A DNA stretch of 64,000 nucleotides from Alphaproteobacteria bacterium (GCA_017453485.1 JAFTEW010000056.1:5141-69140), one strand, 5' to 3'; positions 1 through 22,057 are shown, counted from the first letter of the stretch. Translations and numbers: made by a program. The notes: generated by a model from the letters alone, not told the origin.

Positions 1-1330
1 TTTGAGCATAGTTCGCATCTGAAATATCCGCCGAAGCAAAGGCAGCGCGCACAAAACTTTCACCCCATTCTTTATTATACTCCATTTCGGTTTGCATTAA
101 ACCGTTTACACGAAACATAACCGTCGTATGGTCGGCCACAACGATATGAATATCGGACACCCGTTGCATAGCGGCACGTGATATAATCGTGACGAAATCC
201 CGCTGCATTCGGACCTGTTCCTGAGCATTCGTTTCAACAACCGGCGGAATAAAACTTTTTGTCGCATTACGGGCAGCATACTCATAAATATCATTGATAA
301 CAATGGTGGGAACATACTCCGGCTTACCGATTTGTAAACGCCGTTTGCGGGCCAAATATTCAAATCCCAAAACCTTTCCGTCAAACCGTGCGGCTTCGGC
401 CACAAAGAAACGACCATTTGAGAATAAGGCCAACAAAGCCCGTGTATCATCTTTAACCGGGAAAGAACCGTTCGCCACGGTCACACATTCGTTACCATTG
501 GAAAATAAATCTTCCAAAAATGATTCTGATTTATAGTCCGCATCATCCGATATCGCTTCTGCACCATCCTGGGGCGAATTATTTGCTTCGGTTTCCTGAT
601 CATTTTCAGTTTCCAAAGTCTCTTCTGTTTTTGTTGTTTCGATCGTTCCCGTTTCCGGTGGTTTTACCTCCTGTTCTTCCATAGCAACGATCGGTTCATC
701 CGGCACAACCGATTCTTCTTTCGTTTCTTCTTCAACAGGAAAATCGGGAATCATTGGCTCAGGGGCCGGCGTAGAAATCGATTCTAAATGTTCTTCAAAT
801 TCTGTTTCTTCATCTGTGTAATTTCCCGAGGAAGAATCATTACTTTCGTTATCCGAAGTTTCTTCTGCTTCGGCCGATACCTCATTATCAGCCAAATCAT
901 CATTATCAACTTTTTCCGTTTCATCTTCGTTTAAATCCGATAAAGCAGATTCAGGCTGATTTTCCATATCGTTATTCAAATCTGATGCCACCGGGCTGAC
1001 CCGATCTTCTGTTTCCCCGTCACTTACATCCGGTAAAACCGGTTCTGCTTGATTTTCCGGCGTGAAATCGGCAACCGGAATAACCGGAATAACCGGGGCA
1101 GGGACAGATTGAAATTCATCCGAATTCGATTGATCTGTTTCATCCATCCGCTCATCGATAGGCGAATCTTGTAAAAAAGACGGATACGATTGCGGTTCAT
1201 CTGTTGAGGAAGTCGGCAATACGGGAGCAGGCACAATCGGCGGCGGAATAGGAGCCCCACCTACCGACGACTCAGGCGCATCAGCTTCCGAAAAAGCGGT
1301 CTGCCTGTCTTTCTCTTTTTCCTCAAACAT
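1..1330 (-). CDS. Type IV pilus / T2SS-family secretion ATPase (GspE/PilB/PilQ-like), 3' end outside the window. It carries a ~260-aa acidic (D/E/P-rich) N-terminal extension.
   Basis: I translated the minus strand by hand from the ATG at 1330 (frame 1 mod 3). It is open to position 1 with no stops, about 443 codons. The C-proximal part reads ...RVSDIHIVVADHTTVMFRVNGLMQTEMEYNK..., matching the N2-domain 'ASDIHIE...FRxRxDG' motif of GspE/PilB ATPases. The N-terminal 260 aa are low-complexity, rich in E/D/P/S/T. The gene is absent from the ORF track, presumably because its stop lies outside the window. A GGGG-rich RBS-like stretch precedes the ATG. Confidence 0.7.
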   Translation of the reverse strand, partial: MFEEKEKDRQTAFSEADAPESSVGGAPIPPPIVPAPVLPTSSTDEPQSYPSFLQDSPIDERMDETDQSNSDEFQSVPAPVIPVIPVADFTPENQAEPVLPDVSDGETEDRVSPVASDLNNDMENQPESALSDLNEDETEKVDNDDLADNEVSAEAEETSDNESNDSSSGNYTDEETEFEEHLESISTPAPEPMIPDFPVEEETKEESVVPDEPIVAMEEQEVKPPETGTIETTKTEETLETENDQETEANNSPQDGAEAISDDADYKSESFLEDLFSNGNECVTVANGSFPVKDDTRALLALFSNGRFFVAEAARFDGKVLGFEYLARKRRLQIGKPEYVPTIVINDIYEYAARNATKSFIPPVVETNAQEQVRMQRDFVTIISRAAMQRVSDIHIVVADHTTVMFRVNGLMQTEMEYNKEWGESFVRAAFASADISDANYAQ

Positions 1331-1348
1331 CACCGCCCCAATATTTAC

Positions 1349-2476
1349 TTATTTCATCGCCGGCCGAAAAACAAGGTGATCTATCCGATTACCAAAAGCA
1401 ACCGTCATACCGTCGCGTTTAATTTCACGCACAACATGTCCAGACGGGAGAATATCATCCTGCTTAACTACCAAAACACTTCCGTCTTGTTTATTTTTAA
1501 GGCGAACCGTTAAGTCTTGCCCGATACCCCGAATACTGTCAATAGTATATAACTCTTCCATATTAGAGGGAACAGCCTTTGTCGCAGGCGCATCCGAATC
1601 GGCAACTTCTGTATCATTTTCCGAAGAAGATGTAATATGTTTCATAACTTCTTCCCGCACTTTATCCCGATTTTCTTCTTGTTCGGCAATCTTACGGGCC
1701 AAAGCCTCCTCTTCGGCTTGTTTCTTTTCGATTTCAAGCCGCAGTTTTTCCTGTTCCTGCCACCATTGAATACGGCTACGCACAACATCCTCACGTTTAG
1801 AAATTTCATCTAATCGTTGTTGACGATAGGTGGCCTTTAACTTTTCCAAATCATTTTTCAATCTTTCTTTTTCCAACTGCAATTTCAAAAAAGTATTGCC
1901 CCGTTCCAAATCGGCCATCTCTTGAAAAACTTCTGGTGTTATTCTTCCCAATAGCTGCTCATTCGGTAAATCCTTACCGGATACAGATGGTGCCATCGGC
2001 ATCGGCCCGTTAATGGATACATCGTTAATTCCCGGAATTGGTGCCAACTCTAATGACCCCAAAGACGGTCTGTTCGGAAAATCTACAATGGCTTTCCCGG
2101 AGATAGAGGGATTTTGCAGTTCTTCATCCAACCGTTTTTTATTCTCTGCCCGGACAGCTTCCGGCGTCATTGGGTCAGCGTTTCCGTTTTCACCAACTGT
2201 AATAGTCGGTTGCTGGGCTTTAACGGCACCTGTCTCTTCGGATTTTGAAACCGAACGACCGGGATTACTTTTAGGCATAATCTGAGGTACTTGAATCTCC
2301 GGAGCCGGCTCAACCGCCGCAGTTGCCGTTTCATTCACAGATACATCCTGAGCCTGTGCCGACAATCCGAATAATGCAATTGATGTCAATAAAATTGAAG
2401 ATAAAGAAATAAATTTATTTTGCATAGATTCTCCCCTCATAAGTCCATTTGTTGCCCGATCCGATCGTCGGATCAA
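1349..2476 (-). CDS. PilP/GspC-like periplasmic pilus assembly protein (signal peptide, long coiled coil, C-terminal beta domain). The true start is probably at MQNKF (about 2425).
   Basis: Signal peptide MQNKFISLSSILLTSIALFGLSAQA. A central K/E/R-rich coiled coil follows. The C-terminus (YTIDSIRGIGQDLTVRLKNKQDGSVLVVKQDDILPSGHVVREIKRDGMTVAF) fits the PilP/GspC HR-domain pattern. It sits between the secretin-side genes and the ATPase. Confidence 0.55.
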   Translation of the reverse strand: MIRRSDRATNGLMRGESMQNKFISLSSILLTSIALFGLSAQAQDVSVNETATAAVEPAPEIQVPQIMPKSNPGRSVSKSEETGAVKAQQPTITVGENGNADPMTPEAVRAENKKRLDEELQNPSISGKAIVDFPNRPSLGSLELAPIPGINDVSINGPMPMAPSVSGKDLPNEQLLGRITPEVFQEMADLERGNTFLKLQLEKERLKNDLEKLKATYRQQRLDEISKREDVVRSRIQWWQEQEKLRLEIEKKQAEEEALARKIAEQEENRDKVREEVMKHITSSSENDTEVADSDAPATKAVPSNMEELYTIDSIRGIGQDLTVRLKNKQDGSVLVVKQDDILPSGHVVREIKRDGMTVAFGNRIDHLVFRPAMK

Positions 2477-3734
2477 ATCCGATTTTTATAAATTCCAACC
2501 CGGAAAATTTATCAAAAAATACTTTCCATTCCTGTGGTGAATAAGGCGAACTGATTGAAAACGAAAAATATTTATACATTTGTTGATTTGGCGGAACCGT
2601 CCCGTCCGGATTATCCGGCGGATCTTTAATAGACTGTTCGGAAAACTGTATCGGCAAGGCCGTTGCCTGCTTGATATCCGTTAATTGCTCCCGAATTTGA
2701 TCCGCCGTTAAAGATGGTAAGGACACCACTAATGGAATATCCGTAAAACGAATATTGGCACTGGCCGACGTCCCGGACGGATCCATTTGAACTTCTACCT
2801 TGTTTAACTTATATCGCTCCAAAGCAACTTTCATCCAGGTAAGCCTTGCCCCGCGAGCATTGGTAATACGCCAATCGGTCGTTATTCCCTTAGGTGTACA
2901 GGTGACCGATCCGATCTGCCAATAGGGAATTGTAATTGAATCTAATTGATAGGCATTATTCCAGCACCGATTAATCAAGATATCTGTTTGCGGAACCCGT
3001 TCCCAAGGCTTTGGTTTTTCCGGTGCCGGTTCTTGCGGGCGCATAACCTCAGGCGTCGGCATTTGAATAATAGGGGCCTGTTCAAACACGCTGGCAATAA
3101 AACGAACAGCCAAATAGAACAAAAATGCCAAAGCGACGACGACCAAAACAGCCAAAATAACCAATATCTGTGTTTTTTTGGCAGCACTTAATTCAAATAA
3201 CCGCGTTTTACGGATATTTTCAATCAGGGTTTTTAAATCCCTTTGTTCAGCTCCTTCCACATTCCATTCTGCCGGAACGATCCGGATATCCCAATCCGGA
3301 ACAGCCATCATAGCAAAAAAGGCTTTCTTGGCATCATCTTCCGTATGGAACAGAACATCTTCTTCGGCCAAAATCAAGTCATTCCGGATAGCGACAAACC
3401 ACCATCCTTCATTGACCTTAAACACACAGCAAGCAGACGTCTTATCGGACAATGCCGTTGCCACCGAAGCCGCCAATGCAGGCTCACCGCTATGATGGCC
3501 ATACATCGTACGGCCCAAGCCATATTGCGGCGCAACAGATGTTCTTTGACAATAAAGATCAGCACCGGCTTCGGCTTCCATAGCTTCCCGAATTTCAGGA
3601 ATAGCATCATCCTGATTTTGAAGCGGAGCCCACAACAAGCCGACAGCATATTTCGTCCCGTCAATCGTGACGTTGCCACCACCGGCGGAACGATTTATTG
3701 TCTCAACATTCGTGTTATTCTGTGTATCAGCCAT
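2415..3734 (-). CDS. Bitopic inner-membrane pilus biogenesis protein (PilO-like of type IVb systems). Cytoplasmic N-domain, one TM helix, periplasmic C-domain.
   Basis: 439 aa. TM segment ILVILAVLVVVALAFLFYLAV near the middle. GGGGAGAG RBS before the ATG. Position immediately downstream of the secretin as in R64-type pil operons. The assignment rests on topology and context, not on a recognised motif. Confidence 0.45.
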   Translation of the reverse strand: MADTQNNTNVETINRSAGGGNVTIDGTKYAVGLLWAPLQNQDDAIPEIREAMEAEAGADLYCQRTSVAPQYGLGRTMYGHHSGEPALAASVATALSDKTSACCVFKVNEGWWFVAIRNDLILAEEDVLFHTEDDAKKAFFAMMAVPDWDIRIVPAEWNVEGAEQRDLKTLIENIRKTRLFELSAAKKTQILVILAVLVVVALAFLFYLAVRFIASVFEQAPIIQMPTPEVMRPQEPAPEKPKPWERVPQTDILINRCWNNAYQLDSITIPYWQIGSVTCTPKGITTDWRITNARGARLTWMKVALERYKLNKVEVQMDPSGTSASANIRFTDIPLVVSLPSLTADQIREQLTDIKQATALPIQFSEQSIKDPPDNPDGTVPPNQQMYKYFSFSISSPYSPQEWKVFFDKFSGLEFIKIGFDPTIGSGNKWTYEGRIYAK

Positions 3735-3742
3735 TCTCTCCC

Positions 3743-5389
3743 CTAGAAATCACGCATTCTGGATTCCGGCGACATAGGCGATTCTAAGACTTCCGGTGTA
3801 ATTAAAATAACCATGACATCCCGAGTTGCCTCATTATTTGCCGTTCCACCCAGCAGATTTACTTTGGCCTCTCCGATACCGGATGTGCTAATGTTTTGGG
3901 TCACCTTTTCAAAGCCTGTTAAAACCAAGGTTGAACCGGATGTCATCATGATTTCTTGTAAGAAACCGCGCATTTCCATCTTTGGCAACTGAACGGTTGT
4001 GACTTCATTATCTCCATCATCGTTCGTTGTCGTGCTACCTTCATCTTCGGAGGAAGAATCATTACTTGTCCCCTGATTACCCGTTGTAAAGCGTTCCAAC
4101 TCTAACAAGTTTGATAATGTCATTGAGAATAACAAAACCAACCGTCCGTGGTCCAAAATCCGCGGTAAAATCTCCATTGAGAACCCGTAATTCAACGTAT
4201 CCGTATCCAAATCCGTATCTGAACTGGTTGTCGAACTGCCGTAATTATTGGTCACGCTGACTTCCCGCACATAGTTCTTGGACGTTGTAATTTGAACCGG
4301 TGCCACTTTATTATTCAATGTTGTCACACTGGCACTGGTCACCAAGGATGTCTTACCCTGTGTTGACAGAGCCTGAATAATACCCTGCGTCCCTTTCCAA
4401 CGGGATGTCGGTCGCAACAGTGTCATACTGAGCGCACCGGCCAAAGCCCCGTCACCGGCAATTGCACCAGACGGTCCCGTAAATACCGTGCTGATATTGT
4501 TGGACTTAAAGACAGCATTTAAATTCAAACCGTAAGCATCACTGTTTTCCAATTGAACCTGCAAGACTTTAACAGAAATAGCCACCTGACGGGATAATTT
4601 TTCATTCCAGTTAGCAATATAACTAGCCACCCGTTGCATCACAAACGGACTGGCTGTCACGGTTGCCGTTCCTGCTGTCTTACTAAACACCACTTTGCCT
4701 TGGTCACCCAAAACTTGTTTTACACCTTCTTCAATGCTATTCCATAAAGCCAAATCAACCGATGTAGACAAAGACGAACTACCGACATCAGGAATATCCC
4801 CCCCCATGGATGCCCCTTTCAGATCAGCCGACATTTTGCTTTCCGTAGGCAAAGCATAGATGGAAAAGATTCGGGTTTCTTTGGTGAACAAAGTAATTTT
4901 TCCATTTTTATACCGCCACCAAACGCCATATCTGTTGGATAGATAATTCAACAGCCCGCTCAACTTACCGGCATAATCAACAGCCACAGCCTCTTGCGGA
5001 ACCGCATTTTCAGCTTTCAAATCATCCAATCGCACTTCAATTCCGGTCAAATCCGTAATTTCCTGAGCCAACAGAGACAATGTTGAATCCTGTGCAATAG
5101 CCAGCGTAATACTGTCATCCTGTTCTAATTCATCCGGCAAAGGATCCCCTTCCATAATTTTCATACTGGAATTGCCGAGCCAAATATCATTATGCATCCG
5201 AACGGTATCTACAGCCTCCGGTAAATCGGGGATTTCGGAGCGTTGCCGATATTCTTCGGTCCGTTCCAAAACGGTTTCAATTTTTTTATTGGTCTTATCT
5301 ACATAGTAATTGCACGCCGACAACAAAAGAGCACAGCCTAATGCCCCCGCCAACAAAGCCTTTCTCATCAAACTATCTTTCATTTTCAT
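3743..5389 (-). CDS. Secretin (lipoprotein-type, PilN/BfpB/TcpC-like outer-membrane channel)
   Basis: Lipobox LLLSAC. N0-like domain (ITLAIAQDSTLSLLAQEITDLTGIEVRL). C-terminal secretin core (LNNKVAPVQITTSKNYVREVSVT..., LPKMEMRGFLQEIMMTSGSTLVLTGFEKV..., RDVMVILITPEVL) is typical of the GspD/PilQ family. The start may be at the second or third Met (5383 or 5368). Confidence 0.85.
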   Translation of the reverse strand: MKMKDSLMRKALLAGALGCALLLSACNYYVDKTNKKIETVLERTEEYRQRSEIPDLPEAVDTVRMHNDIWLGNSSMKIMEGDPLPDELEQDDSITLAIAQDSTLSLLAQEITDLTGIEVRLDDLKAENAVPQEAVAVDYAGKLSGLLNYLSNRYGVWWRYKNGKITLFTKETRIFSIYALPTESKMSADLKGASMGGDIPDVGSSSLSTSVDLALWNSIEEGVKQVLGDQGKVVFSKTAGTATVTASPFVMQRVASYIANWNEKLSRQVAISVKVLQVQLENSDAYGLNLNAVFKSNNISTVFTGPSGAIAGDGALAGALSMTLLRPTSRWKGTQGIIQALSTQGKTSLVTSASVTTLNNKVAPVQITTSKNYVREVSVTNNYGSSTTSSDTDLDTDTLNYGFSMEILPRILDHGRLVLLFSMTLSNLLELERFTTGNQGTSNDSSSEDEGSTTTNDDGDNEVTTVQLPKMEMRGFLQEIMMTSGSTLVLTGFEKVTQNISTSGIGEAKVNLLGGTANNEATRDVMVILITPEVLESPMSPESRMRDF

Positions 5390-6257
5390 CCTCCTGCGTG
5401 CTGATGACTAGCACCCGATTACCCTGATAAAACGTTCCGATCGGTGCCGGTGTTGCCCGAGCAAACGACCGAATTAAAGCACCGGAAACTTCCGTAAATG
5501 TTCCCTGGAATATAACACCGGCTTCTAAACGATAATCCCGATCCAGTTGCCAAATAACAGTCCATCCGGATTTTTCTCCCCAATCCTTCAACAACCGACG
5601 CAAAGTATTTCCCGAATCGGCTTCCCAAGAATGAACACCTTCACCATAGGCAATTTTTTCAGCCAACGTCATTTCCCAAACAGGTTTCTCTTCTTCTGTC
5701 GCCTCTTCCGAAGAAGCCTTAACCTTCGTCGTTGTTTCCGTAATGGTTGTTTTAACTTTCTTCAAAGGAATCATCCCGGCCGGAACCGCCGCTGCCGTAT
5801 CCGCCGCTTCACCGACAACCTGAACCGATGTTTCCGTATCAGATGAGGTTTCTAAAACAGCCCCCGGCAAAGCCGTAGAGGAATACATAACCTTTTCCCC
5901 CGGCAATCCGTTTGCTTCCAAAATAGCTTTTTTTTGTTCAGCCAAAGCTTGTCTTTCCCGAACAGACATCATTCCCTGTCCGGCAGGCCGTGACACGGCA
6001 ATTGTATCATCCTGAGTTTGGATAAACTGATTAGTCAGATAATCATCTGTTTCCACACAATCATCGGCCTCACAAGCCACATCAAATGTTTCCAATCTAT
6101 CCGTATCCTGAATAACGGGAGTTGCTTGTTCATCCATAGTCCATTCATCGTTAAACGCTTCATCGCCAGAAGATAAAGAACAAGCCCCCAATCCCAGGGC
6201 GCACAGCATCGTTCCCGTCAGGATTGTTTTTTGAAATATCGTCTGTTTTCCCATCAT
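5373..6257 (-). CDS. Pilus-associated lipoprotein (possible PilL/TcpQ-like pilotin)
   Basis: Lipobox ALGLGACSLSS. Acidic, T-rich linker. Conserved-looking C-terminal block SGNTLRRLLKDWGEKSGWTVIWQLDRDYRLEAGVIFQGTFTEVSGALIRSF. It lies directly upstream of the secretin and overlaps it by a few nt. Confidence 0.45.
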   Translation of the reverse strand: MMGKQTIFQKTILTGTMLCALGLGACSLSSGDEAFNDEWTMDEQATPVIQDTDRLETFDVACEADDCVETDDYLTNQFIQTQDDTIAVSRPAGQGMMSVRERQALAEQKKAILEANGLPGEKVMYSSTALPGAVLETSSDTETSVQVVGEAADTAAAVPAGMIPLKKVKTTITETTTKVKASSEEATEEEKPVWEMTLAEKIAYGEGVHSWEADSGNTLRRLLKDWGEKSGWTVIWQLDRDYRLEAGVIFQGTFTEVSGALIRSFARATPAPIGTFYQGNRVLVISTQEDENER

Positions 6258-6311
6258 AAACTCCTTTATTCTGATACCTTACTTTATTTTATCGCATAAA
6301 ACAAGTCTTTT

Positions 6312-7373
6312 TTACCACTTTTTTACCCGTGACATATTTTTAGGTAATTTTGCTTCTTTCTTCATCCGAACTGTTTCCGTCGGTTCCGGCCGCGGCACTG
6401 CCCGGAGCAACATCGTATCAACCGGTCGATTCGTATAATTTACAACGATTTGATGGGTTGACAACCCGACCCCTTGTAAAACGCCTTTTACCAAAGCCAA
6501 TCGTTTATCTTGTAAGTCGGCTTCGGCACAACTGGACCGAATTTCAACAATCAAACGCGGATCTTGCAGAGCAGCAACAGCAAAAGCACGCACCCATTTT
6601 AAAGTTTGCCCCGAAAAAGCGCTGGCCTTCGGATAAAAGGTTATCCGCACTTCATGCGGCATTTTGAAAGGAATGCGACCACCGTCTTTTAAACCGTTAA
6701 ACATCTGATCCGCATATTCGTTGGGAACAATAATCCGTTCACGTGTTGGTAAGGCCGGTTCAGCAACCTCTCCGGCATTAACCGGTGCCAATGGAATCAA
6801 CAACCGCCCTCCGGCTGACTTAAATTCCGGTTGTTCTTCCTCGGACAAAGAAATACTCTGTTTTTTTGCCTGCTCCGTTTTTGCCTGGATTTTAGTTGAA
6901 GAATCATTTTTTACCTGATGGCCGGTCCCTATTTTAACGGGCTGACCGTTGGCAGCACCCGTTTTATCTATATCCGTCTCTTGTCCCAGAACCCGCGAAG
7001 TTGTCGTAGTTGTCGTTCGAACAATTGCCTCCTGACCGACCGAAACAGGTGTTTCAATCACAACCGGCTCATACTTAGTTTCAACAGTCGTTTGACGCTC
7101 CACGGTTGCCGTTTCCCCCGGAAGCAAGTATGTCGGCAGCAGAAAATCACCGTCCGCCGTCACCGTTGCAACAGCTTCATCCGACAGAGCCCCTTGTTCA
7201 TCCGGAAGCAATTCCCCCGATTCGGTTTTACCCGACACACCGATTGACGTATCTGCCGAAACAATTTCATTAATATCGCCATCGGCTCGGACAAAAGCCG
7301 GCAAGAGCACAGCCCAAACCGCACATGTTGTAAAAACAATGGAAGTATTTAATTTATAACGCATTTTATTCAT
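6312..7373 (-). CDS. Secreted protein with C-terminal OmpA-like peptidoglycan-binding domain
   Basis: Signal peptide. T-rich linker. C-terminal block HEVRITFYPKASAFSGQTLKWVRAFAVAALQDPRLIVEIRSSCAEADLQDKRLALVKGVLQGVGLS..IVVNY follows the OmpA_C pattern. It is the first gene of the assembly operon after the pilin-like gene. Confidence 0.5.
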   Translation of the reverse strand: MNKMRYKLNTSIVFTTCAVWAVLLPAFVRADGDINEIVSADTSIGVSGKTESGELLPDEQGALSDEAVATVTADGDFLLPTYLLPGETATVERQTTVETKYEPVVIETPVSVGQEAIVRTTTTTTSRVLGQETDIDKTGAANGQPVKIGTGHQVKNDSSTKIQAKTEQAKKQSISLSEEEQPEFKSAGGRLLIPLAPVNAGEVAEPALPTRERIIVPNEYADQMFNGLKDGGRIPFKMPHEVRITFYPKASAFSGQTLKWVRAFAVAALQDPRLIVEIRSSCAEADLQDKRLALVKGVLQGVGLSTHQIVVNYTNRPVDTMLLRAVPRPEPTETVRMKKEAKLPKNMSRVKKW

Positions 7374-7548
7374 TCCTTTTTGGCCAAATTATGGAATTGA
7401 TAAGATATCTTTTCCAAAGATACAAGAAAAATGTTTAATTTTTTATTAACAAGAAGGACTTTTTCCCATAAACATGCAATAAAAGTCCGCTCCTTGTCAA
7501 AAAGGATTCAAAGAATATCAAGATAACGTAACCTCTACAATGCTATAT

Positions 7549-7576
7549 AAAAAAGGTAGCGAGAAGCTCTCGCTAC
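7549..7576 (-). terminator. Rho-independent terminator downstream of the pilin-like gene
   Basis: Perfect 9-bp stem GGTAGCGAG/CTCGCTACC with a 4-nt loop. On the minus strand it is followed by a T6 run (A6 at 7549–7554 on the plus strand). It lies 25–50 nt past the stop of the 7600..10725 gene. Confidence 0.6.
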
Positions 7577-7599
7577 CCTTACATTCGATAATAATCGAA

Positions 7600-10500
7600 T
7601 TAATCTTCCCTAGTAAATGTGACAGTCAAATTATAACTAGGTCCTCCATGGTTAGTATACATATAGTAGCAAAATGTACCACCCGGAGCCAACACTCCCG
7701 CATCTTTATTTGGGAGATAAAGTATCTGTGCACTTTTTTTATGACTACGATGAGCTAGTTCAACTTTTGTTCCACCCAAAGAACTACTTTCACATTGTCC
7801 TGATACAATTTGCCCATTTAAGCGGTATCCAGTATGCCCATAAACGGCAGATCCTGAAATTCTGATTCGATAATTTGAGTTCGTATTATTCGTTGTATGA
7901 CAAAAAGCTTTGCTCCAATCATTGTGAGACGTCCCACTTGCATAGCAGGTTTGTAATGTAGCAGGACCTCGACAAATTCCATTAATAAATTCATTTGGAG
8001 ATTCGCAACATTTTTTAGTGTTACCGGCTGTATAGATACGATTACTGGCACAACACTTATTATCTGCCCAACCTTGACCACTGTTACAACAATGTCCGCT
8101 GACATTAATTTTACCGCTGGCACAGCAGAGTCCGCCACCGACATTAACATTATTGCCCGTACAGCAAACCTTTGTCCCATCCGATGCTTGACTCAAATCC
8201 TTTGCACAGCATTTATTGGTCGATCCATCTTTATAAACACGAGATGTCAGACAACAAGAAGAACTTGTATTAGAAGCCGTTCCGATAACGGTTTGATTAT
8301 CGCCGCAACAACTCCAATAATCCGTAGTTCCGGTCGCCCCCTCTTTCCATTTTTTCCGGAACTTAGTTGCCGTGGAGTCATCTCCTTTCAACAATTTACC
8401 ATCAGCACAACATCCTGCAAACGTTTGTGTCTTGTTGTTTTGTTTTCTTTCATTAAACAACTTGGTTGCTCCGCTGGAGCAGCATCCGACCGTATTGCTC
8501 AGTGTCCAATTACTTGTATTACATGTTTGACACTCACCGACTTTACTTGTATCAACGACAACCGCGCCATTCGGATAGTTTTGTCCGTTACATTTACCGC
8601 AGGCACCAACAGCACCGGTGTGTCCCTGCCAATTCCATGTCGTCGTATTGCAACTTTGACAAGTTGGTGTTGTCTGATCTCCGCGCACAGGACTCCCGTT
8701 CACACACTTACCGCATTGACCGATCGTTGTTCCATCCGTTTTATTTGTTGTTGATGTTGTCTTGACATTCGTACACAGGTTCGTTGTTGTTGCCACCGTT
8801 GAACACGTATTGTTTGTCTCGCTGGTCGTTGTCTTATCGGCAGAACATGTGCTGGCCGGTCCGCTTTCTCCGGCGGCTAAACACTTTGTTTCCGTCTTAC
8901 TCTTACAACAATTACCATCCAGGTATTTATAAGTCACACTCTTGTTCGTCGCCGTTCCATCACAAACACCCTTACAGTCAAATTTTCCACTGGCACAACA
9001 CTTTGTGCCATTGGCATATACCGTCCCGGAGCAACATTTCTTCGTCCCATTCTCGGTATAAACCTTCGTCGTATCACAGCAAGTTGTTCCAACCACTTGA
9101 CCGTTCGCACAGCACTTGCCGCCAACATAACTCTGGCCGCTCGCACAACAATGTCCGTTTGACAAAACATTATCACAACATTTCGTCACACCACCTTCGG
9201 TATATGTCCGATTTGCAGGGCAACACCCTTCTTCATCTTTGCAGGAGGCATCAGCACTACAACACGTCCGGGTTGTTCCATCACAATTCGTCACGGTTTT
9301 ATTTGTTGCCGTTCCGTTACAGACACCGGCACAGTCTTTCTTGGCTGAACCACCGCAAACACCCGCACAGTCCTTAACCTGTCCCGGACAACACCCTTCT
9401 GCCGTCTTCGCTATGCCACAACCGCATCCGTCATCCTTGGCCGTTCCGTTACACACACCGGCGCAATCTTTCGTTGCTGTCCCGCCGCAAACACCCGCAC
9501 AGTCCTTAACCTGTCCCGGACAACACCCTTCTGCCGTCTTCGCTATGCCACAACCGCATCCCTCATCCTTGGCCGTTCCGTTACACACACCGGCGCAGTC
9601 TTTCGTTGCTGTCCCGCCGCAAACACCCGCACAGTCCTTAACCTGTCCCGGGCAGCACCCTTCCGCTGTCTTCGCTATGCCACAACCGCATCCGTCATCC
9701 GTCTTATTACTTCCGCAAACGCCGTCACATCCCTTCTGACCCTTATTGACAATCTTATATCCCGTCGCTGCACTACACGTAATACACTCCTCATCCGTCC
9801 AATCTCCCATCAATACATTCCCGTTCGTGCATCGTCCGCATTCCTCTATCGTTGAACCGCTCTCATATGTCTTCCCGTTATATTCGCACTTCTTCGGCGG
9901 ACATAATCCAACCCCTCCCTTACCGTCACAGCACCGATCCTGACTCGGATCCGCTCCACTGACTACCTTTACTCCTTTCTCCTTCGGCTTACATGTCCCG
10001 TTCGCCTGTCTCTCCTCACATACATCACAATGGCATTTCCCATAATCACGAACACAGACACCCGTCTCATTATCACAACACAACGGATGACACTCCGAAT
10101 CATAAGAACATAACGCACCTACACTGTCATGGAACACAAACGATAGCACATTATGATACTCTCCATCCAACGCCGAACTGATCATCCCTCCTTCACGTAT
10201 CACATCTCCGTCCGGAATACATTCCACATCATACTTCCTCTCCCCATAGTTCCAACTATACAACTCCCCATTAATCGCCGTATAGGTCGGATCCGGAAAC
10301 TCCGTCTTCTTCACTATCTCGCACACACGATACGGGATATCATACACTTCCAAAGCTTGAATATATTCTTCCCCGTTCAAACCGCTGTTTGATACAACCG
10401 CATTCCCATACGGACTCGGCCGATCATTCGGATAGTCATTAAAGGCCTCTACCTTAAACCGGCCATATATCTTATCCTCCGCACTGTCCGGATGAAACTC

Positions 10501-10725
10501 CTTTAAATCCAAGTCCTGCTCTAACACCCGTTGCTGACCGATAATTACAGAACGCATCCGAACACCATTCACAACCTCGTTCGCCATGATCCGATCCAAC
10601 GAATAACGATATCCCCATAACGCCGTCATCGTTATAATCCCCATAATCGCCAGAACGCCCAATATCTCCGTCATCGTCCGACCGGCTTGCGAGAACAATA
10701 TACTCTTCAAATTTGTATTCGCCAT
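7600..10725 (-). CDS. Giant (~1040 aa) cysteine-rich surface protein with type IV prepilin-like N-terminus (minor-pilin/adhesin candidate). Contains CC-doublet repeats and three 41-aa tandem repeats.
   Basis: Start reassigned to the ATG at 10725, which has an AGGAG RBS 7 nt upstream. The track ORF starts at 10833. The N-terminus MANTNLKSILFSQAG|RTMTEILGVLAIMGIITMTAL has G at -1, E at +5 and a hydrophobic helix, resembling TcpA/BfpA-type prepilins. The remainder has over 100 Cys in CCxxG, CxGxC and CAGVCGGTATKDCAGVCNGTAKDxGCGCGIAKTAEGCCPGQVK repeats. Confidence 0.6.
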   Translation of the reverse strand: MANTNLKSILFSQAGRTMTEILGVLAIMGIITMTALWGYRYSLDRIMANEVVNGVRMRSVIIGQQRVLEQDLDLKEFHPDSAEDKIYGRFKVEAFNDYPNDRPSPYGNAVVSNSGLNGEEYIQALEVYDIPYRVCEIVKKTEFPDPTYTAINGELYSWNYGERKYDVECIPDGDVIREGGMISSALDGEYHNVLSFVFHDSVGALCSYDSECHPLCCDNETGVCVRDYGKCHCDVCEERQANGTCKPKEKGVKVVSGADPSQDRCCDGKGGVGLCPPKKCEYNGKTYESGSTIEECGRCTNGNVLMGDWTDEECITCSAATGYKIVNKGQKGCDGVCGSNKTDDGCGCGIAKTAEGCCPGQVKDCAGVCGGTATKDCAGVCNGTAKDEGCGCGIAKTAEGCCPGQVKDCAGVCGGTATKDCAGVCNGTAKDDGCGCGIAKTAEGCCPGQVKDCAGVCGGSAKKDCAGVCNGTATNKTVTNCDGTTRTCCSADASCKDEEGCCPANRTYTEGGVTKCCDNVLSNGHCCASGQSYVGGKCCANGQVVGTTCCDTTKVYTENGTKKCCSGTVYANGTKCCASGKFDCKGVCDGTATNKSVTYKYLDGNCCKSKTETKCLAAGESGPASTCSADKTTTSETNNTCSTVATTTNLCTNVKTTSTTNKTDGTTIGQCGKCVNGSPVRGDQTTPTCQSCNTTTWNWQGHTGAVGACGKCNGQNYPNGAVVVDTSKVGECQTCNTSNWTLSNTVGCCSSGATKLFNERKQNNKTQTFAGCCADGKLLKGDDSTATKFRKKWKEGATGTTDYWSCCGDNQTVIGTASNTSSSCCLTSRVYKDGSTNKCCAKDLSQASDGTKVCCTGNNVNVGGGLCCASGKINVSGHCCNSGQGWADNKCCASNRIYTAGNTKKCCESPNEFINGICRGPATLQTCYASGTSHNDWSKAFCHTTNNTNSNYRIRISGSAVYGHTGYRLNGQIVSGQCESSSLGGTKVELAHRSHKKSAQILYLPNKDAGVLAPGGTFCYYMYTNHGGPSYNLTVTFTRED
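9290..9715 (-). repeat. 123-bp tandem direct repeat (about 3.4 copies, near-identical), in-frame within the pilin-like gene
   Basis: Read directly from the DNA. Shadow ORF 9239..9739 also shows three identical 41-aa units, PAQSF(L/V)A(E/V)PPQTPAQSLTCPGQHPSAVFAMPQPHPSSLAVPLHT. Confidence 0.85.
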
Positions 10726-10759
10726 AACAGAACTCCTCTGATTAAAACTCCTTCCTCTC

Positions 10760-10788
10760 AGTATATCCAGAATTATCCCTATTGTAAA
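10760..10788 (-). promoter_or_regulatory. Candidate sigma70 promoter of the pilin-like gene (TTTACA-N17-TATACT)
   Basis: On the minus strand, TTTACA then a 17-nt spacer then TATACT, about 35 nt upstream of the AGGAG/ATG at 10725. It is divergent from the tRNA-Glu promoter. Confidence 0.4.
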
Positions 10789-10934
10789 GCCATTTTTTCC
10801 ATTTTTTAAGCATTCCGCGGGTTTTAAGAACATGAATCAAAAAAACGCATTTATTATCAATGCATTGACACAAATTATAACCATCCGACAGAATGTTGCT
10901 TTTTCAAAAAAAATGAAAAAAACGTAAAAAAGAC

Positions 10935-10963
10935 TTGCAAATTCGCAGAAAATCGGTTATAAA
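10935..10963 (+). promoter_or_regulatory. sigma70-type promoter for tRNA-Glu (TTGCAA-N17-TATAAA)
   Basis: TTGCAA at 10935–10940, a 17-nt spacer, TATAAA at 10958–10963, 17 nt upstream of the tRNA. Confidence 0.55.
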
Positions 10964-10980
10964 GGGTGCTGTCTTTTTTT

Positions 10981-11056
10981 GACCCTATCGTCTAGAGGCC
11001 TAGGACATCGCCCTTTCACGGCGGTAACGGCGGTTCGAATCCGCCTAGGGTCGCCA
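10981..11056 (+). tRNA. tRNA-Glu (anticodon TTC)
   Basis: Cloverleaf folds. Acceptor GACCCTA/TAGGGTC. Anticodon loop CTTTCAC. Near-identical to E. coli tRNA-Glu through TCGTCTAGAGGCC.AGGAC.CCGCCCTTTCACGGCGGTAAC. Ends in CCA. Confidence 0.9.
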
Positions 11057-11064
11057 AGTGTATA

Positions 11065-11090
11065 AGCCACCTTTCGGGTGGCTTTTTTTA
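11065..11090 (+). terminator. Intrinsic terminator after tRNA-Glu
   Basis: AAGCCACC tttc GGGTGGCTT followed by a T7 run. Confidence 0.6.
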
Positions 11091-11535
11091 TTATCGGGCG
11101 CATATTATATTTCCCCGAGGGGGGAGAAATAAAAAGCACTTGACTTTCATGATGAAATAGGGGATATTTGAATCGGATGGGGTGGTGTCCATCCGGAGGA
11201 TTCATAGCCTCTAATGGTTGTCAAGAGACACTTTGACATAAAAACCCCCTTCTGGTCGTAACGACTGGAAGGCGGTTGAATAGCCGGCTTTCGGTCGGTC
11301 AATAGGCTGCACTATTACCATTAATAGCTATGAAACTTCCAGTCGCCTGAAACATCATAAATGATTTTTTATTAGGGGAAGTTAGAGAAAAGACATAAGG
11401 CACATATATATGGCCGCTGGACTGCACCATGTCATGCTCGACCCGATCGGGCATCCAGGAAAAACGTAAAATCCCTGCCACTCCGGGCTTGCCCCAGAGT
11501 CCATCAAGCAACAAGTATCAATAGAAATAAAAAAA

Positions 11536-12525
11536 TTAAGTAATTTCCGTGACAGCCCGAATGTTGCCGTCCCGATTGATTTGAACAACCTTAACCTTTT
11601 CCCGCATCTCTTTCAATGTCTTTTCCCGATCCATCCCCGGAGACGAGTGCAAAATTCGGGACAAAAAAGCCTGATACGCCTCAGTCGCCGAATCAGCGTG
11701 AATGGTTGCAAAACAGTTATCATGCCCCGTATTCATCAATTCCCAAAATGCCGCCGCATTGCTGGTAGAAATTTCCCCACACAAAATCGCATCCGGTGTA
11801 AACCGAACGGCTAAGTCAATCACCTTTTTATAATCAAATGCATTTGTCTGCTCGGTTCGGGACAAAACAACATGCACCCTGTTTTTATGGGGCACTTTTA
11901 ATTCACGAACGTCTTCCACCGTCACCACGCGCTTGTGTAAATCCAGCAACTGAATCATATTATTTAAAAATGTTGTCTTACCGGTTGCCGTTCCGCCGCT
12001 AACCAAAATATGATTGCCGCGCTTAATATACATAACCAACCGATCATAGGGATCATCCGGATCCTCAACACCCTTTAATTTATTGATCCGTTGCAGACGC
12101 TCTCCGGATTCTAAACCGAACTCCTTTAACTTAATCGGCTGATCCGGCCGCCAAACACGAATATCCATGGCCACACCACCCGTCAAATCATTATTGTCAT
12201 ACTGAACGTTATTACCGGCAATCCCCGTAAAACGATGGCCGCCGGGTAACTGAGTAAAAACAACCGGATTGCCGTTTACCGGATCAAAAGCCATATTATA
12301 GGAATTGGCAATAATATGTAATAAATTAACCAAGTACTCGCGTGTCAATTTTGGATCTTCATAGTAATGCCACGGGTGCGCATGCCGCCCCCTGAGCCGC
12401 AACCAAACACCACCGGGATTGTTGATGGCCATATCTTCCACATTATCTTGCGAATACCAATAGGCCAGGGGTCTTAATACGGACTCCAACACCCGATACA
12501 TATTTTCAACAGGTAAATCCGCCAT
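11536..12525 (-). CDS. virB11: VirB11-family type IV secretion ATPase
   Basis: Walker A VSGGTATGKTT. C-terminal block ILCGEISTSNAAAFWELMNTGHDNCFATIHADSA, as in VirB11/TrbB. Confidence 0.85.
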   Translation of the reverse strand: MADLPVENMYRVLESVLRPLAYWYSQDNVEDMAINNPGGVWLRLRGRHAHPWHYYEDPKLTREYLVNLLHIIANSYNMAFDPVNGNPVVFTQLPGGHRFTGIAGNNVQYDNNDLTGGVAMDIRVWRPDQPIKLKEFGLESGERLQRINKLKGVEDPDDPYDRLVMYIKRGNHILVSGGTATGKTTFLNNMIQLLDLHKRVVTVEDVRELKVPHKNRVHVVLSRTEQTNAFDYKKVIDLAVRFTPDAILCGEISTSNAAAFWELMNTGHDNCFATIHADSATEAYQAFLSRILHSSPGMDREKTLKEMREKVKVVQINRDGNIRAVTEIT

Positions 12526-12545
12526 TGATACCTCCCGCTTTACCG

Positions 12546-15500
12546 CTAAAACAGTTTTTTATCGGTCTGTTGCTGCGTCCTGGGGAAAATCGGATTAACA
12601 ACCTGTCGATTAGTCCCCGTATTCGCCGTCGGCACAACCGCGACAGAAGGTGTAGAACCGGTCGCCGGGGCCGTTTCTGCGGCCGCCTGATTATCGGTAT
12701 CGGTCTCCCCGTTATAGATCGCTGCCCCACCGCCCATACCGGCCCGGTCATTATAGAGGACATCCCGATTGGTATAGATGGTTTCATAATCCGGATTATA
12801 GTATCCGACCCCATCATCCACAACAACAGACCCGCCACCGATATCGGTCGCAATACCACGCTCCGATGCTAATTCCGACATTTCACCGCTGCGAGGTTCA
12901 ATCCAATTCCCCTTGGAAGCCGGTCGGGCTTTCTTGGTATCTGCCCCATAGGCCGCTAAATAATCCTGCTCATCCTCAATTTCAGAACGGAGCCATAAAT
13001 CCGAGTTGGAAAATACCGTCAACCGTGTTCCGGCCGGCACAAAAACAACCTCGTCTATATTCATTGATTCATTTAATAATTGTTGGAAAATCTGACTCAT
13101 CGAATCAATGAAATTACTTCTGGCATCATTCGCTGCCTGTGCCCGAGAACTCATCACCTGATCACCGTTATCTTTATTCGTGATATCATCATTTGTCGCC
13201 GTCACAAACGCAATAGCCGATGTTAATGTTGATTGCAGAACCGGTCGCCCGTATTTCTTCAATAACTGCTCATCCAAATAGGCTGCTACACCGCCACGCC
13301 CCTGAGCATCACCAGAAGTTGCACTAAACGTAAAGGCCGAACCGTCCGGACGAATTAAGCGCGTCCAAGAAATTTCCATTTTATTGACATGTGAGCCACC
13401 GGCACCACCACCGCCTCCACCGGCACTACCGATCAGACGACTACCGGCAGGAATAATGATGCGCCGTCCCTGTTCGGCATAAATATGACGTTCAACAATA
13501 GCCGTCACAGGAACACTCGCATGACGAGAATCAATAGAATGTGCTAACACGGCCGGAATAGCTTTATCCTTTAAAATCATCCGTGACATATCAACCGGAT
13601 AACTGGACACGATTTTGGGTTCCCCCCAATCCAAATCCTGTTTTTTACGGGCACGAGCCAAAGTCCGCACATCCGGCAACATCCGCTCATAGGAACGAAT
13701 TTTGCTCTTCATCGCGGCCCGCCGTGTTGCCAACAGGCTATCCATAGCATCTTTATGTTCTTGGGGCACTTCAATCGGTTTTTTAATATCCGGACGACCC
13801 GTCGGACCACCAGTACCACTTAAAGCCCGATCATCCAGCGAATAGGGACGACCATCCTCACCCATATACCCGATGATATTACCGTCTTTATCAATTAAGG
13901 ATCCCTGTGGGGTCACATTAAACATCTCACCGCCCAAGAAGATACGGCGATCCCCAGACATTGCCCCCGGACCATCACCTAACATAAGAGCTGGTGCAAT
14001 CTTTTCCAAATCAATACCGAATAACTCAACATCCGAGATAACGTTATCATTCAAATCACGCACAATACCGTCATCCCCCAGTTTTCCTTTTGTTGTACCA
14101 TCAAAACCGACAATATCGCCGTTATCTAAAATCAATCCGATGAAATTACCGTCCGGATCACGAACAACCCGAATATCACTGACTTCATTTCCATTCGGAT
14201 CTACCAACTTATCATCATCTGTCAAGGTGGCAATTTTCCGACGTGTTTTGGGATCAATAATATCTCCGTTCGGGAGAACTTGAAATTGTTCATTCCCTTT
14301 CGGGTCTTTAAACATTCCGTTTCGCCCGAAACTGCCCCGGATATTACCCCGACTGTCAAACATCAATTCTTCATCCGGTGTCACAACCCGACAAATAATT
14401 TCGCCTTCTTGGTTAATAATGCTACCCTTGCCATCACCGATAACTTTACCAACAATTTTTCCGGCACCATCTACCACAATACCATTATGCTTAATTCGAC
14501 CGCAAGCCCCCCCGTTCGGGTCAATGGCTAAGCCCCGTTCCACAACGTGTCCGACAGCATCACCACTACCATTAACGACCGTCCCGTCATTTCGGGCACA
14601 ACCCATGACGATACCATTTACGTCAACGACCGTTGAATCCGGAAGTGTTCGTCCCAAATAATCACCTGAAATGGATGCAACCAACCCGTTTTGTGCTGCC
14701 CGACCAATTCGATTTTCGGCACCATCCACAGCCCACTTATCCGGCGTAACCCGACCAACGGCATTTCCTTGACCGTTAATAACTTGACCGTTGAATGAGA
14801 CTTGCCCTAATACTTTGCATTCATTAACAACCAATTGTTCCGGGACAAGACCACCTAAAATCCGATACTTATGCGTCCCTTTAACAGCACCGTTTACGGC
14901 AATTTGGCCAACTTCTTCACCGGCATAAGAAACAACCTTACCTTCACCATCCAACATACCCAAAACCTGACCGTCATGACCGGTGGCCGGATTAAAGGAC
15001 AAGACCATTCCGTCAATCGGTAAATCCTTCCCCAGGACCGATCCGTCATCCAATTCCCGATAAACTTTTTTATCTGCGGCATCTACAATATCACCCGTCA
15101 CGGTTGTCCGCCCCATAACTTGATTGCGATAACTGAATGGCAATCCTTGCTTGATGACATGGCCGACATACGGCATTGTTGAATACATTTGACGATCCGA
15201 CAATCCAACGGCACTTCCATCCGACAAGATACGTCCCATCAAAAGCCCTTCTTTTCCGGAAATCGTTCCATCCAAGGCAATCACACCGATATCATATCCG
15301 TCATCATTGACAACTTGCCCAACAGGTAAAGCACCTCCGGCCCAAATTGTATCCGGTGTCAAAGCCGATCCATACGGCATATATTCAGCTAATTTATGAC
15401 CGTCTTTACCTAAAATTTCAACAGTTCCCGAACTTCGGCCAATCACAACACCGTTGCGATCAATAAATGTTGCCGGTGATAATATGCCACCAATCAATTG

Positions 15501-18500
15501 ACCTTGCGAATCATACACAGCACCGCTACCTGTCCCAACGGCCGTTCCAGACTCTTGACCATCCGTTAAAATCTGCCCTGTCGGCAACGGAATCCCCATC
15601 AAGCCCAATTTTGTCCCGATCGGCAATCCAACCGGCGATAACCCGGCGACAACCTTTTTAGTCAAATCAACAACCAAACCGTTTGCCGTTAAATTGCCCA
15701 GGGGCTTATTATTATTGACAACCATGACGATACCGTCTGCACCGGCCATGCCTGATAATCGACCGTTAACATTATCTTTAACAGCTAATGATTTTTGCAT
15801 CAATCGGCCGACGATTCGCCCATCTTGAACAGCGTAGGTTTGATTGGTCACAGAAGCCACCTTATCACCACGACCGTTCACAACCTGCCCTTTTCCATCT
15901 ACAAGTCCCATAAATCCGGTCTTATCCGCCATGACCAATGTGCCAAGCGGGATATAGGCCCCCAGGACACTGCCGTCTGTATGAACAACCTGACCATCCA
16001 GCGTCACATGTCCGATAACATTTTGACCATCCTCCACAGCCCCATCAAACCGAGTCCAACCGATAAAGCCCCCATCGGCATTAACAGCCACACCGGGTTG
16101 CAACAATTGACCAACAATACCATCCTTGTTGTTGAAAACATAAGTATAACCGTTCATTAATCCGATATTCTGCCCGTTAGCAGTCAAAACCTGGCCATTC
16201 GTCGATACGGCCGTCAGATAACTTCCGTTTTCGGATACAACGATTCCCCGCGGAACCAGCGTTCCCAACACTTGATTATCAGCATTTAAAGCAACACCCG
16301 TCACCGAAACTGTCCCGACGGCATTTCCGGATTTGTCGTTGATACCGCCCTTAAAGTTAGCCCAACCGATTAACTGTCCAGTCGAATCAACATACGGTCC
16401 TATCCTCAACAACCGCCCGGAAATATTCTCCCGTTCACTATAAATTGTGCCAAACGGAGAAGCCACCCCGATTTGTCGACCACGGGCATCGTTAATTTTA
16501 CCCTGATAAGTCAATGCTCCCAACAATCCGTCAGCTCCAATCGGTAATGAGATATCCGGAAAAATACCGCCCAAAACCCGACCATCATTTGAAATCGCCA
16601 GTCCGTTTCCTAAAACATGTCCGATAACTGTCTGAGCCGCTGAAATGACTTCACCTTTACCGTTAACCGTCCCAACTTCACGACCGGTCACAGAAAAAAC
16701 TTTCCCCTGCGGAATGCGAACCCCGACCGTTTGCCCGGCCCGATTGACCACAGTGCCATCAGACTTAATTACACCTAAGGATTCGCCATCCTGATTCTGT
16801 AAGATACCATCAACGGTCATTGTTGCTAAATAGCCACCCTTCGGATCCATGAAAGCCGTCTTATCCGGGACCAACAACCCAATAACCGTGTTCTTTTCGG
16901 TATTCAAAACAGAATAATCCGGCAAAACATACCCGAACCGTTCACCGCTTGGTGTCAAGGCCATCCCTGTTTTTCTGGAATACCGCCCCAGGATAACACC
17001 GTCATGACCGAAAATAACACCATCCGGCGGCACAACAGCAATGATTTCATCTTTATCATTAACGACCCAGTTATTCGGTAGCAAACGACCGACTTTTTGG
17101 CCATCCGGCCCATAAACGTCCGTTCCAACAACCTTTAATCCGGTATCATCACCGTTTTCGTTTAGCACAGCCCCATCACCCGGTTCTGCCCCCAACAAAA
17201 TTCCGATAGGCGTTTTTCCATCCTGACCGGTGACTGTCCCATCACTGTTAACACACCCGATCACATTTCCGTCATTATCAATAACTTTACCATCCAAGCG
17301 TGTCCGACCGATAACTTTTCCGGTTGGACTCACAACCAACCCCATCGGAGCCACGAAACCGATGACTTCTTCTTGCTTATCAATAATTTGCTTTTCCGGA
17401 TTCATGCAACCGATAATCAACCCGTTTTCATCCATGACGTAACCTTCCGGCGTAATCAACCCTAAGAAACGACATCCGTCAGCAATAGCTGCTCCACGTG
17501 GCACAACCACACCGATGATACGGTGGTTAACATTAACAACATGACTGTCCGGACGCACCTGCCCGACCACTTCCACAGCTGCATTCATCACAACACCATT
17601 CGGATAAACGGACCCGATTCCCTGACATCCACGCCCCATGACATGACCGCGCGGCATAACGGCACCTAAAATTTTGGTCCCAGCAGATACGGTTCCGTCC
17701 GGATTAACACACCCGATAACAGACCCTTTACCATCAACCACTTTACCTTCCGAATTCACAAAACCGATGACATTACCTTTTTCGTTAATGACAAGCCCCA
17801 TCCGAATGGCCGTTCCCACATCAACACCATTCGCATCAACAACGGCACCATTCAACAGCGTATGACCAATTACCTGCGAGAAACCATCCTTAACCTGTCC
17901 GTTCGGCATAATCCGACCTAAGGCTTTACAAGCAGCCCCGACAGCGATCCCCCGAGGAATAACTCCCCCGATCAATTCTCCATCCGGATCAACAGCCAAC
18001 CCGTTCGGTTGGATGGAACCGATTGTCTGATTACTTTCATTTACAATAGAACCATTCGGCAAAATTCCACCGATAACTTGCCCTAACCAGTTGATAACCA
18101 ATCCCTGCGGTTCCAAATACCCGATCGGCTCACCGGCTAAATTAACAACCGTTCCGTCAACCAAGGGTCTGCCGATAACGGTCTTTGATCCGTCAACAAC
18201 CGTTCCTTCTTTGGTGACCACGCCCAAAACCCGTCCTTGTTCATTCAAAACAGAAACAACAGGAATAGCGCTTCCCAGCACCTTTAAGGAAGAATCCACA
18301 ATCGTGTCATCACCCACCAACCGACCGACAGCTTTCCCATCCGCATCCGTCACATCACCGGTTTTAGAGATTGTCCCCATCATTTTGTTGTTGATATCAA
18401 TCGGAATTCTTTCCGGCTCAACGATACCGACAAAGTGATCATCTTTATCAACCAACAAATTGCCTTTTACCTTGTATGTCTCACCACCGATTTCGACCTC

Positions 18501-19172: not shown

Positions 19173-19205
19173 TGCACCTAACCTCTTTTAATCAAATATT
19201 ATTCT

Positions 19206-21074: not shown

Positions 21075-21146
21075 GCCTTGATTGTTTTATCCTAAACAAA
21101 AATAGAAACAAAGTCCACAAAAAAATGAAATTTTTATGTTTTTTGC

Positions 21147-21860: not shown

Positions 21861-21880
21861 ATGCCCAAACCCCTTTTATC

Positions 21881-22057
21881 CTACGAGAACCATTCCGGTA
21901 AAGCCGGAGCCTTATCCAACTTTAAACACGCACAAGGAGATTTCTTCAATTCCGACCAATCAGGACCGATACCGACCGGTTCTTTTTCATAAATTGACCC
22001 GCAAGCCGCTAAGATCAAAGCACCAACAGCAAAAACAGTAAGTAAAATTTTCTTCAT
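21881..22057 (-). CDS. VirB7-like small lipoprotein (58 aa)
   Basis: Internal start MKKILLTVFAVGALILAACGS (lipobox LAAC). Size and position between two virB8 genes match the rvhB7 arrangement. Confidence 0.5.
   Translation of the reverse strand: MKKILLTVFAVGALILAACGSIYEKEPVGIGPDWSELKKSPCACLKLDKAPALPEWFS

Follow-up and report, generated by a model that had tools for sequence, protein, structure and literature searches.

The 64,000-nucleotide stretch of DNA analysed here from an Alphaproteobacteria bacterium (GCA_017453485.1 JAFTEW010000056.1:5141-69140; hereafter the window) carries type IVb pilus machinery of the R64 kind and, beside it, a separately transcribed gene for a giant protein of 1041 amino acids (aa), which is probably a modular type IVb pilin displaying a variable Cys-rich adhesin, most likely at the pilus tip. 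The giant is notable for its size, its Cys content, its variability between strains, the scattered positions of its genes and its neighbouring operon, which has no major pilin. It is 100% identical to hypothetical protein IJV07_05065 from a metagenome-assembled genome (MAG) of an uncultured Alphaproteobacteria bacterium. Several metagenome assemblies, ruminant gut data sets included, hold contigs identical or nearly identical to positions 1-10833, and the related loci all belong to MAGs of uncultured Alphaproteobacteria from sheep rumen and human guts (Hadza, Nepal). The view was extended ~5 kb past window position 1 by L001, a contig from the same species with 100% identity across 10.6 kb.

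The giant gene (7600-10725, minus strand) encodes 1041 aa from MANTNL, with a ribosome-binding site ahead of its ATG at 10725. The N-terminus of the protein, MANTNLKSILFSQAG followed by RTMTEILGVLAIMGIITMTAL, combines Gly at -1 and Glu at +5 with a hydrophobic helix, a combination that is the prepilin-peptidase substrate pattern noticed in the initial annotation of this DNA. Six-frame translation of the whole window yielded Gly followed by RTMTE and a hydrophobic helix in one gene-sized open reading frame (ORF) only. Residues 1-203 (10117-10725, minus strand) make up the putative pilin module, composed of a 15-residue leader of the class III signal type that ends in Gly, the RTMTE motif, the hydrophobic alpha1 helix and a globular alpha/beta head. 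Homologues share this N-terminal module of ~200 residues, with 42 invariant columns that include G15, R16, E20 and C135, and beyond it their sequences diverge completely. The second conserved Cys of the module, C169, is kept in at least 90% of homologues and is invariant in 13 full-length members. G15, E20 and the helix positions were invariant in the 11-13 aligned members and were also present in nearly all of the 144 representatives newly retrieved in the family search described below.

The likeness to pilins extends to proteins encoded inside operons of the same family. Small PilS-like pilins of two distant relatives (L013 and L014) share the GRSMVEMLGVLAI / GRSMVEMLGVLAIIGVLSVGG N-terminus with the giant, and the N-terminal ~40 residues are near-identical. 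Profile-profile comparison (hhalign) of the giant module with these pilins gave a probability of 98.5% over the first 38 columns only, so that no homology of the head domains was detectable. A sequence-profile search of the PDB with the module returned pilin N-termini only (PilA, E=0.011). An AlphaFold2 model of residues 1-229 predicted an alpha1 helix of ~50 residues packed on a small antiparallel beta-sheet, as in type IV pilins. In a fold comparison, this model scored 8.4 against CofA, 7.4 against TcpA, 5.7 against C. difficile PilA1, 5.1 against S. Typhi PilS, 4.3 against CofB and 3.9 against TcpB, and the top seven Foldseek matches were TcpA and CofA chains only. CofA and TcpA are type IVb major pilins and CofB and TcpB are minor pilins, so the predicted fold of the module is nearer to the majors. 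Sequence and predicted fold together indicate that the first ~203 residues of the giant are a complete pilin module.

The remaining 838 residues (204-1041; 7600-10116 with the stop codon, minus strand) are a C-terminal extension rich in Cys, Gly, Thr and Lys. The protein has 104 Cys in total, 102 of them after residue 203, which amounts to 12% of the tail. Three tandem repeats of 132 bp lie at 9308-9703 on the minus strand (TRF period 132, 3.0 copies, 94% matches), and each encodes a 44-aa unit (...GCGCGIAKTAEGCCPGQVKDCAGVCGGTATKDCAGVCNGTAK...). The Cys-rich repeat body described in the initial annotation was therefore recovered; its description as eukaryote-like was not, because searches of the tail against Pfam and NCBIfam gave zero curated-family matches up to E<=1 and the proteins resembling it were bacterial. 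EGF, TNFR and other eukaryote-like domains were rejected as candidates on the same searches. The similar proteins are bacterial surface proteins with DCAGVCGG-type (CxGVCGG-type) repeats, from Myxococcota, Marinimicrobia, proteins sorted by the type IX secretion system and others. The giant thus has the two parts of a modular pilin, a pilin module (1-203) and an extension (204-1041) that shares repeats with non-pilin bacterial surface proteins. Structure prediction of the Cys-rich body, which the initial annotation had proposed as a check, modelled only residues ~470-575 with confidence, as stacked beta-hairpins.

Comparison of strains showed that the tail is variable. The allele at the same locus of L022, a strain with 88-90% nucleotide identity, encodes 816 aa and has two of the window's segments lacking or replaced, and L005, a strain 99.3% identical, differs by a cassette at 8727-8488. 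These sequences indicate that the tail changes fast between strains, by cassette-sized insertions and deletions. Inversion of the shufflon type was rejected as the source of this variation because there are no inverted repeats in 7400-11300.

The module heads many other proteins. A word-index search with the N-terminal 203 residues returned two truncated proteins only, and an exhaustive profile search revealed the family, whose representatives, one for each 50%-identity cluster, number 984 at the stricter limit of E<=1e-10 and rise to 5147 at E<=1e-3. Among the best 150 representatives, which were examined further, nearly all of the 144 newly listed start with E-x-G followed by RSMVEMLGVLAI. 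The median length is 388 aa and the longest member reaches 1259 aa, and the tails are diverse, mostly Cys-rich with some of other kinds. Short members (~190-260 aa) were considered as module-only major pilins and rejected, since those inspected look truncated or frameshifted. On this profile evidence, the module defines a large and undescribed family.

The seven co-directional minus-strand ORFs reported in the initial annotation were all present, the giant gene being followed by the six genes of the assembly operon. The first gene of the operon (6312-7373) encodes a secreted protein of 353 aa that carries a signal peptide and has a conserved domain of ~100 aa at its C-terminus, and its homologues occupy the same position in L010-L014. 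It matched no known family; there was no Pfam or NCBIfam match at E<=1 and no PDB match to a six-sequence profile at E<=10, and the label 'OmpA-like' given to it earlier has no support from these searches. The next gene encodes a PilL/TcpQ-like lipoprotein of 294 aa (5373-6257) with a TcpQ domain at residues 210-287 (PF10671, 65 bits against a cut-off of 27), and the one after it a PilN-family type IVb secretin of 548 aa, likewise a lipoprotein (3743-5389), which matches Secretin PF00263 and scores 296.4 bits on TIGR02520, above the cut-off of 287.65. Their lipoboxes, read from the sequence, are LGAC and LLSAC, respectively. The secretin is ~28% identical to IncI-plasmid PilN and to BfpB, and a search of plasmids with it found 2917 with a match, of which 2474 are conjugative.

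PilO, a bitopic assembly protein of 439 aa (2415-3734), matched the full PF06864 ('PilO2') model (positions 2-419 of 419; 90.3 bits against a cut-off of 26.7), and its one transmembrane segment near residue 190-215 gives a topology that agrees with the one described for PilO2Bp (PMC3984277). Between pilO and the ATPase gene, as in R64, lies the gene for a PilP-like periplasmic protein that has a signal peptide and, in its middle part, a coiled coil (358 aa from MQNKF, 1349-2425; the longest ORF reaches 2476 and 375 aa). Its position in the operon fits the PilP-like label, and its match to TIGR03021 pilP_fam is weak and below the cut-off (23.7 bits against 34.65, E=7.7e-5, residues 253-359). 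The ATPase of the PilQ/GspE family runs off the window, which holds the first 443 codons of its gene (1-1330, by frame translation). The complete protein, encoded at 9261-11642 of L001, has 793 aa and scored 228 bits on T2SSE and 236 and 204 bits on the GspE and PilB models. Its N-terminal extension consists of ~370 strongly acidic, low-complexity residues, which the homologous ATPases in L013-L019 do not have. Directly after the ATPase gene, L001 encodes a GspF-type platform protein of 379 aa (T2SSF, 81 bits), and there the operon ends, the subsequent genes being on the opposite strand. The order TcpQ/PilL, PilN, PilO, PilP, ATPase and platform is that of R64 pilL-pilR. The earlier assignments of a lipoprotein, a lipoprotein secretin, a PilO-like protein and a GspE-family ATPase, and the proposed likeness to the R64 gene set and order, all held. 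Gene content and order indicate that positions 1-7373, together with the rest of the ATPase gene and the platform gene, form a chromosomal operon for type IVb pilus assembly, of the R64 thin-pilus kind. Its machinery is of a known type, of which it is a distant and ordinary representative. The locus is placed on a chromosome and not on a plasmid because the remaining window carries housekeeping genes (EF-Tu, folD, surA, lptD, mutS and xerC/D-like). The platform gene is followed directly downstream, on the other strand, by a gene for a secreted Ala/Pro-rich protein of ~250 aa with repeats (TTRYVGPGNDYT / PAQYTGKAG), conserved in the window species (L001 12862-13629, minus strand) and a relative with 77% PilO identity (L010 15792-16550, minus strand).

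Signals on both sides of the giant gene indicate that it is a transcription unit of its own, separate from the operon. A promoter-like site, TTTACA-17-TATACT, lies ahead of it at 10760-10788 (minus strand; 10/12 in a consensus scan), and an intrinsic terminator with a 13-bp stem, six G-C pairs, a 3-nt loop and a T-run follows at 7552-7580 (minus strand), beginning 20 nt past the stop. Another promoter-like site (7388-7417, minus strand; 9/12) precedes the 353-aa gene at the head of the operon; both promoter-like sites are consensus matches only. The terminator between the giant gene and the operon is thus real, as had been reported, but the proposed layout of a pilin attenuator at the head of an operon is not a conserved design, as the giants of relatives are unlinked to such operons. 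In L010-L012, the operons most closely related to this one, no pilin lies either upstream or downstream, and the giant gene adjoins the operon only in the window species and in the L022 strain. Because the giants of relatives stand alone and the closest operons have no upstream pilin, the adjacency of giant and operon appears to be lineage-specific. In two of the unlinked loci, a 68-aa ORF lies immediately downstream of the giant homologue (L020 11769-11975; L024 9981-10187).

Downstream of the ATPase gene, beyond position 1, the initial annotation had proposed a search for a platform protein, a prepilin peptidase and a major pilin, and in the ~5 kb covered there only the platform gene was found. 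In the distant relatives L013 and L014, whose PilO is ~35% identical, one to four pilins of 190-210 aa are encoded right after the platform gene, and these match Pfam PilS (PF08805, 59 bits) and Bundlin (46 bits). Up to four of these PilS/bundlin-type paralogues stand in tandem (L014 16133-19013; L013 15561-19380), with identical N-termini and variable C-terminal halves. The same regions encode a 186-aa pilin-like protein without the Gly/Glu motif and a PilT-like ATPase of 321 aa, possibly a retraction motor, which is absent near the operon of the window. The operons of the close clade, which have no major pilin, raise a testable question: what does the machine polymerise?

We propose the following sequence of events for the giant. 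A prepilin peptidase encoded elsewhere would cut after Gly15, and the alpha1 helix would then dock the giant into a filament built by the neighbouring machinery. The analogy with the large type IVb minor pilins CofB, TcpB and PilV makes the tip its most likely position, as a low-abundance or initiating subunit, so that the Cys-rich and presumably disulfide-rich stalk would be displayed outside the cell as a variable adhesin. Such a role as tip adhesin is plausible.

Several results weigh against this interpretation. The head domain has no sequence similarity to known pilins, and the giant stays below threshold on the N-methylation models PF07963 and TIGR02532. The relative P0009 reached 10 bits against a cut-off of 21.2, and the cut-off of TIGR02532 (16.3) is narrowly exceeded by the small PilS-like pilins of L013 (16.8). 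A missing match to the N-methylation models is usual for type IVb pilins. The structural support comes from a model of medium confidence (11 sequences, pLDDT 66, pTM 0.62) with weak Foldseek E-values (0.16-0.6), and the full-length AlphaFold2 prediction, made from a 13-sequence alignment, had a pLDDT of 35 and left the tail unmodelled. Linkage to the operon is not conserved, as homologous giants stand alone among housekeeping genes in 4/4 relatives examined. In addition, there is no small major pilin of the PilS/bundlin type in the window, in L001 or in the close relatives L010-L012, and no A24 prepilin peptidase among the scanned or Pfam-annotated genes of the window and its ~5 kb flank, which were most of the genes there. 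The absence of the peptidase does not refute the proposal, because the PAPI-1 and B. pseudomallei Tfp7 pilus operons are likewise without one and borrow the peptidase of another system (PMC3984277).

The main rival explanation is that modular giants are the principal or only subunits in the close clade, forming a short, pseudopilus-like stub or a sparse 'bottle-brush' fibre that serves as a device for surface display or secretion and not as a classical long pilus with a minor tip adhesin. It would account for what is seen in the window species and in L010-L012 (70-78% PilO identity), where the operon stops at the platform gene and no small pilin lies close by, and it agrees with a predicted module fold nearer to major than to minor pilins and with the lack of a convincingly complete module-only short protein among the best 150 representatives. 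Yet only ~69 kb of the genome was seen, and a PilS-type pilin may be encoded in another part of it, just like the giants of relatives; the machinery of distant relatives, moreover, carries 1-4 PilS-like pilins with the same N-terminus. Type IV pilus geometry is a further obstacle, as a folded appendage of 838 residues carried by each subunit is difficult to reconcile with a helical rise of ~1 nm and with passage through a secretin. We regard giants as sole or principal subunits as unlikely.

Two other explanations are less likely still, because the N-terminus is shared with operon-encoded pilins and the predicted fold is that of a pilin. The giant might stand beside the operon by coincidence and be the substrate of a different filament system (type IV pilus, type II secretion or Tad), as its own promoter-like site and terminator, the unlinked giants of all four relatives examined and the related operons with no upstream pilin would allow. 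The near-identity of its N-terminal ~40 residues with pilins inside operons of the same family speaks against this, as do the persistence of the arrangement in a strain diverged by 10-12% and a window in which no other type IV filament genes were seen, and we consider coincidence quite improbable. It is very improbable indeed that the giant is no pilin at all, but a Cys-rich surface protein, Sec-exported or membrane-anchored, whose N-terminus mimics a class III signal. The sub-threshold N-methylation scores, the peptidase gene not found in the window and ~5 kb, and tail repeats of the CxGVCGG type, common to many non-pilin bacterial surface proteins, are what such a protein would show; but G-1, E+5 and the helix are kept across family clusters, the PDB profile matches are confined to pilin N-termini, and the predicted fold is pilin-like. 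A modular pilin displaying its tail on a filament of the neighbouring machinery thus remains our preferred explanation.

The machinery finds its closest parallel in the R64 (IncI1) thin pilus and its relatives, the PAPI-1 pil cluster, B. pseudomallei Tfp7 and the Salmonella SPI-7 pil operon, which have the same machinery families in the same order. The R64 thin-pilus variant's component list agrees with the genes of the window, and PF06864 PilO is specific to this variant and Bfp (PMC3984277). The R64 kin and the window locus also both have VirB-type secretion genes next door. In contrast to R64, the window operon has no pilS, pilT, pilU, pilV or pilM, its secretin shares only the above ~28% identity with the plasmid PilN, and it has an extra secreted first gene and the acidic N-terminal extension on the ATPase; the locus lies on a chromosome, surrounded by housekeeping genes, and the window has no relaxase, Rci or shufflon.

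The initial annotation had likened the giant to R64 PilV. The concept is the same, in that PilV of R64 and TP114 joins a constant pilin-type N-terminus to a variable C-terminal part, which is presumed to set binding specificity (PMC9045228; PMC5297154). No sequence relationship was found, as the giant had no match to Shufflon_N in Pfam at E<=1 and its locus had no shufflon-type inverted repeats. Unlike PilV, the giant varies between strains by insertion and deletion of tandem repeats and cassettes and not by site-specific inversion; it is at least twice the size of PilV and has the 12% cysteine tail. CofB of enterotoxigenic Escherichia coli and TcpB of V. cholerae resemble the giant in having a pilin module followed by large extra domains within a type IVb system, and they are thought to be located at the tip and to start assembly (PMC5207764; PMC8179133). 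The modular pilins of Raynaud et al. 2021, such as PilB and PilC of S. sanguinis, likewise consist of a pilin module with a grafted bulky C-terminal module, presumed to be ligand-binding. More than 1200 such pilins were reported, widespread, diverse and argued to be tip-exposed adhesins, the most extreme having 860 residues (PMC8179133). That survey required a match to IPR012902 and a recognised extra domain, and the giant family has neither. At 1041 aa, with a family maximum of 1259 aa, the giant exceeds this extreme, and its type IVb system is that of a diderm.

Modular pilins account for the way in which simple filaments acquire new binding functions, and those known bear one recognisable domain or a few. 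In the present case, a complete pilin module would be joined to more than 800 residues of presumably disulfide-rich, fast-changing sequence, and the same module heads hundreds of different tails in uncultured gut bacteria. If these proteins are displayed on pili, they would represent a large unexplored set of adhesins that shape the attachment of an abundant uncultured gut lineage to hosts, protists or partner cells. A bolder generalization, which we hold to be doubtful, is that gut and rumen Alphaproteobacteria carry about a thousand 50%-identity clusters of stand-alone, hypervariable modular type IVb pilins, that these are the sole pilins in the window clade, and that the machine is a dedicated display system for interchangeable disulfide-rich adhesins. 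If true, the repertoire would be comparable in logic to a shufflon or to antigenic variation, and its targets might be eukaryotic hosts (protists, epithelium) or the target cells of the neighbouring VirB-type system.

That system is a type IV secretion cluster (VirB8-VirB11; 11536-22781, minus strand) directly upstream of the giant gene. It comprises a VirB11 of 329 aa, a VirB9/CagX with a C-terminal SPOR domain, two VirB8 paralogues and a giant VirB10 of 2208 aa with nine '5-fold beta-flower' repeats (PF21785) before the TrbI domain; there is no VirD4 or relaxase in the window. In the related locus L013, a VirB4 gene adjoins the pilus operon, and other relatives have no such gene. A conserved linkage of pilus operon and type IV secretion was rejected, as it is seen in the window and L013 only and is absent from L010-L012, L014, L016 and L019. 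A tRNA-Glu(UUC) gene (10981-11056, plus strand), with its own terminator-like hairpin at 11064-11084 (plus strand), separates the VirB11 gene from that of the giant pilin. Between the VirB8 genes and folD, seven consecutive co-directional ORFs (22787-29476, minus strand; 530, 299, 230, 235, 429, 236 and 252 aa) gave no significant Pfam match and one sub-threshold Agenet match, and they may be further, unrecognised components of a secretion system.

Among the housekeeping genes, a single ORF of 1077 aa (31592-34825, minus strand) fuses three parts, namely an inner-membrane permease of the LptF/LptG type (aa 6-345, 230 bits), a segment resembling LptA/LptD_N (aa 401-458) and the LptD barrel of the outer membrane (aa 645-1012, 177 bits). 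The same gene was called in two independent assemblies (L007 and L008). A lipopolysaccharide transporter spanning the envelope in one chain would be unusual, and a quick literature search gave no description of one. Finally, ~4 kb past window position 1, L001 encodes a second Cys-rich exported protein near the operon (14445-15782, minus strand), in which 445 aa comprise Cys-rich Ephrin-receptor-like or TNFR-like repeats (PF07699, PF23091) and then an apparent Hint/intein-type domain (CFTGDTLIQLANG...).

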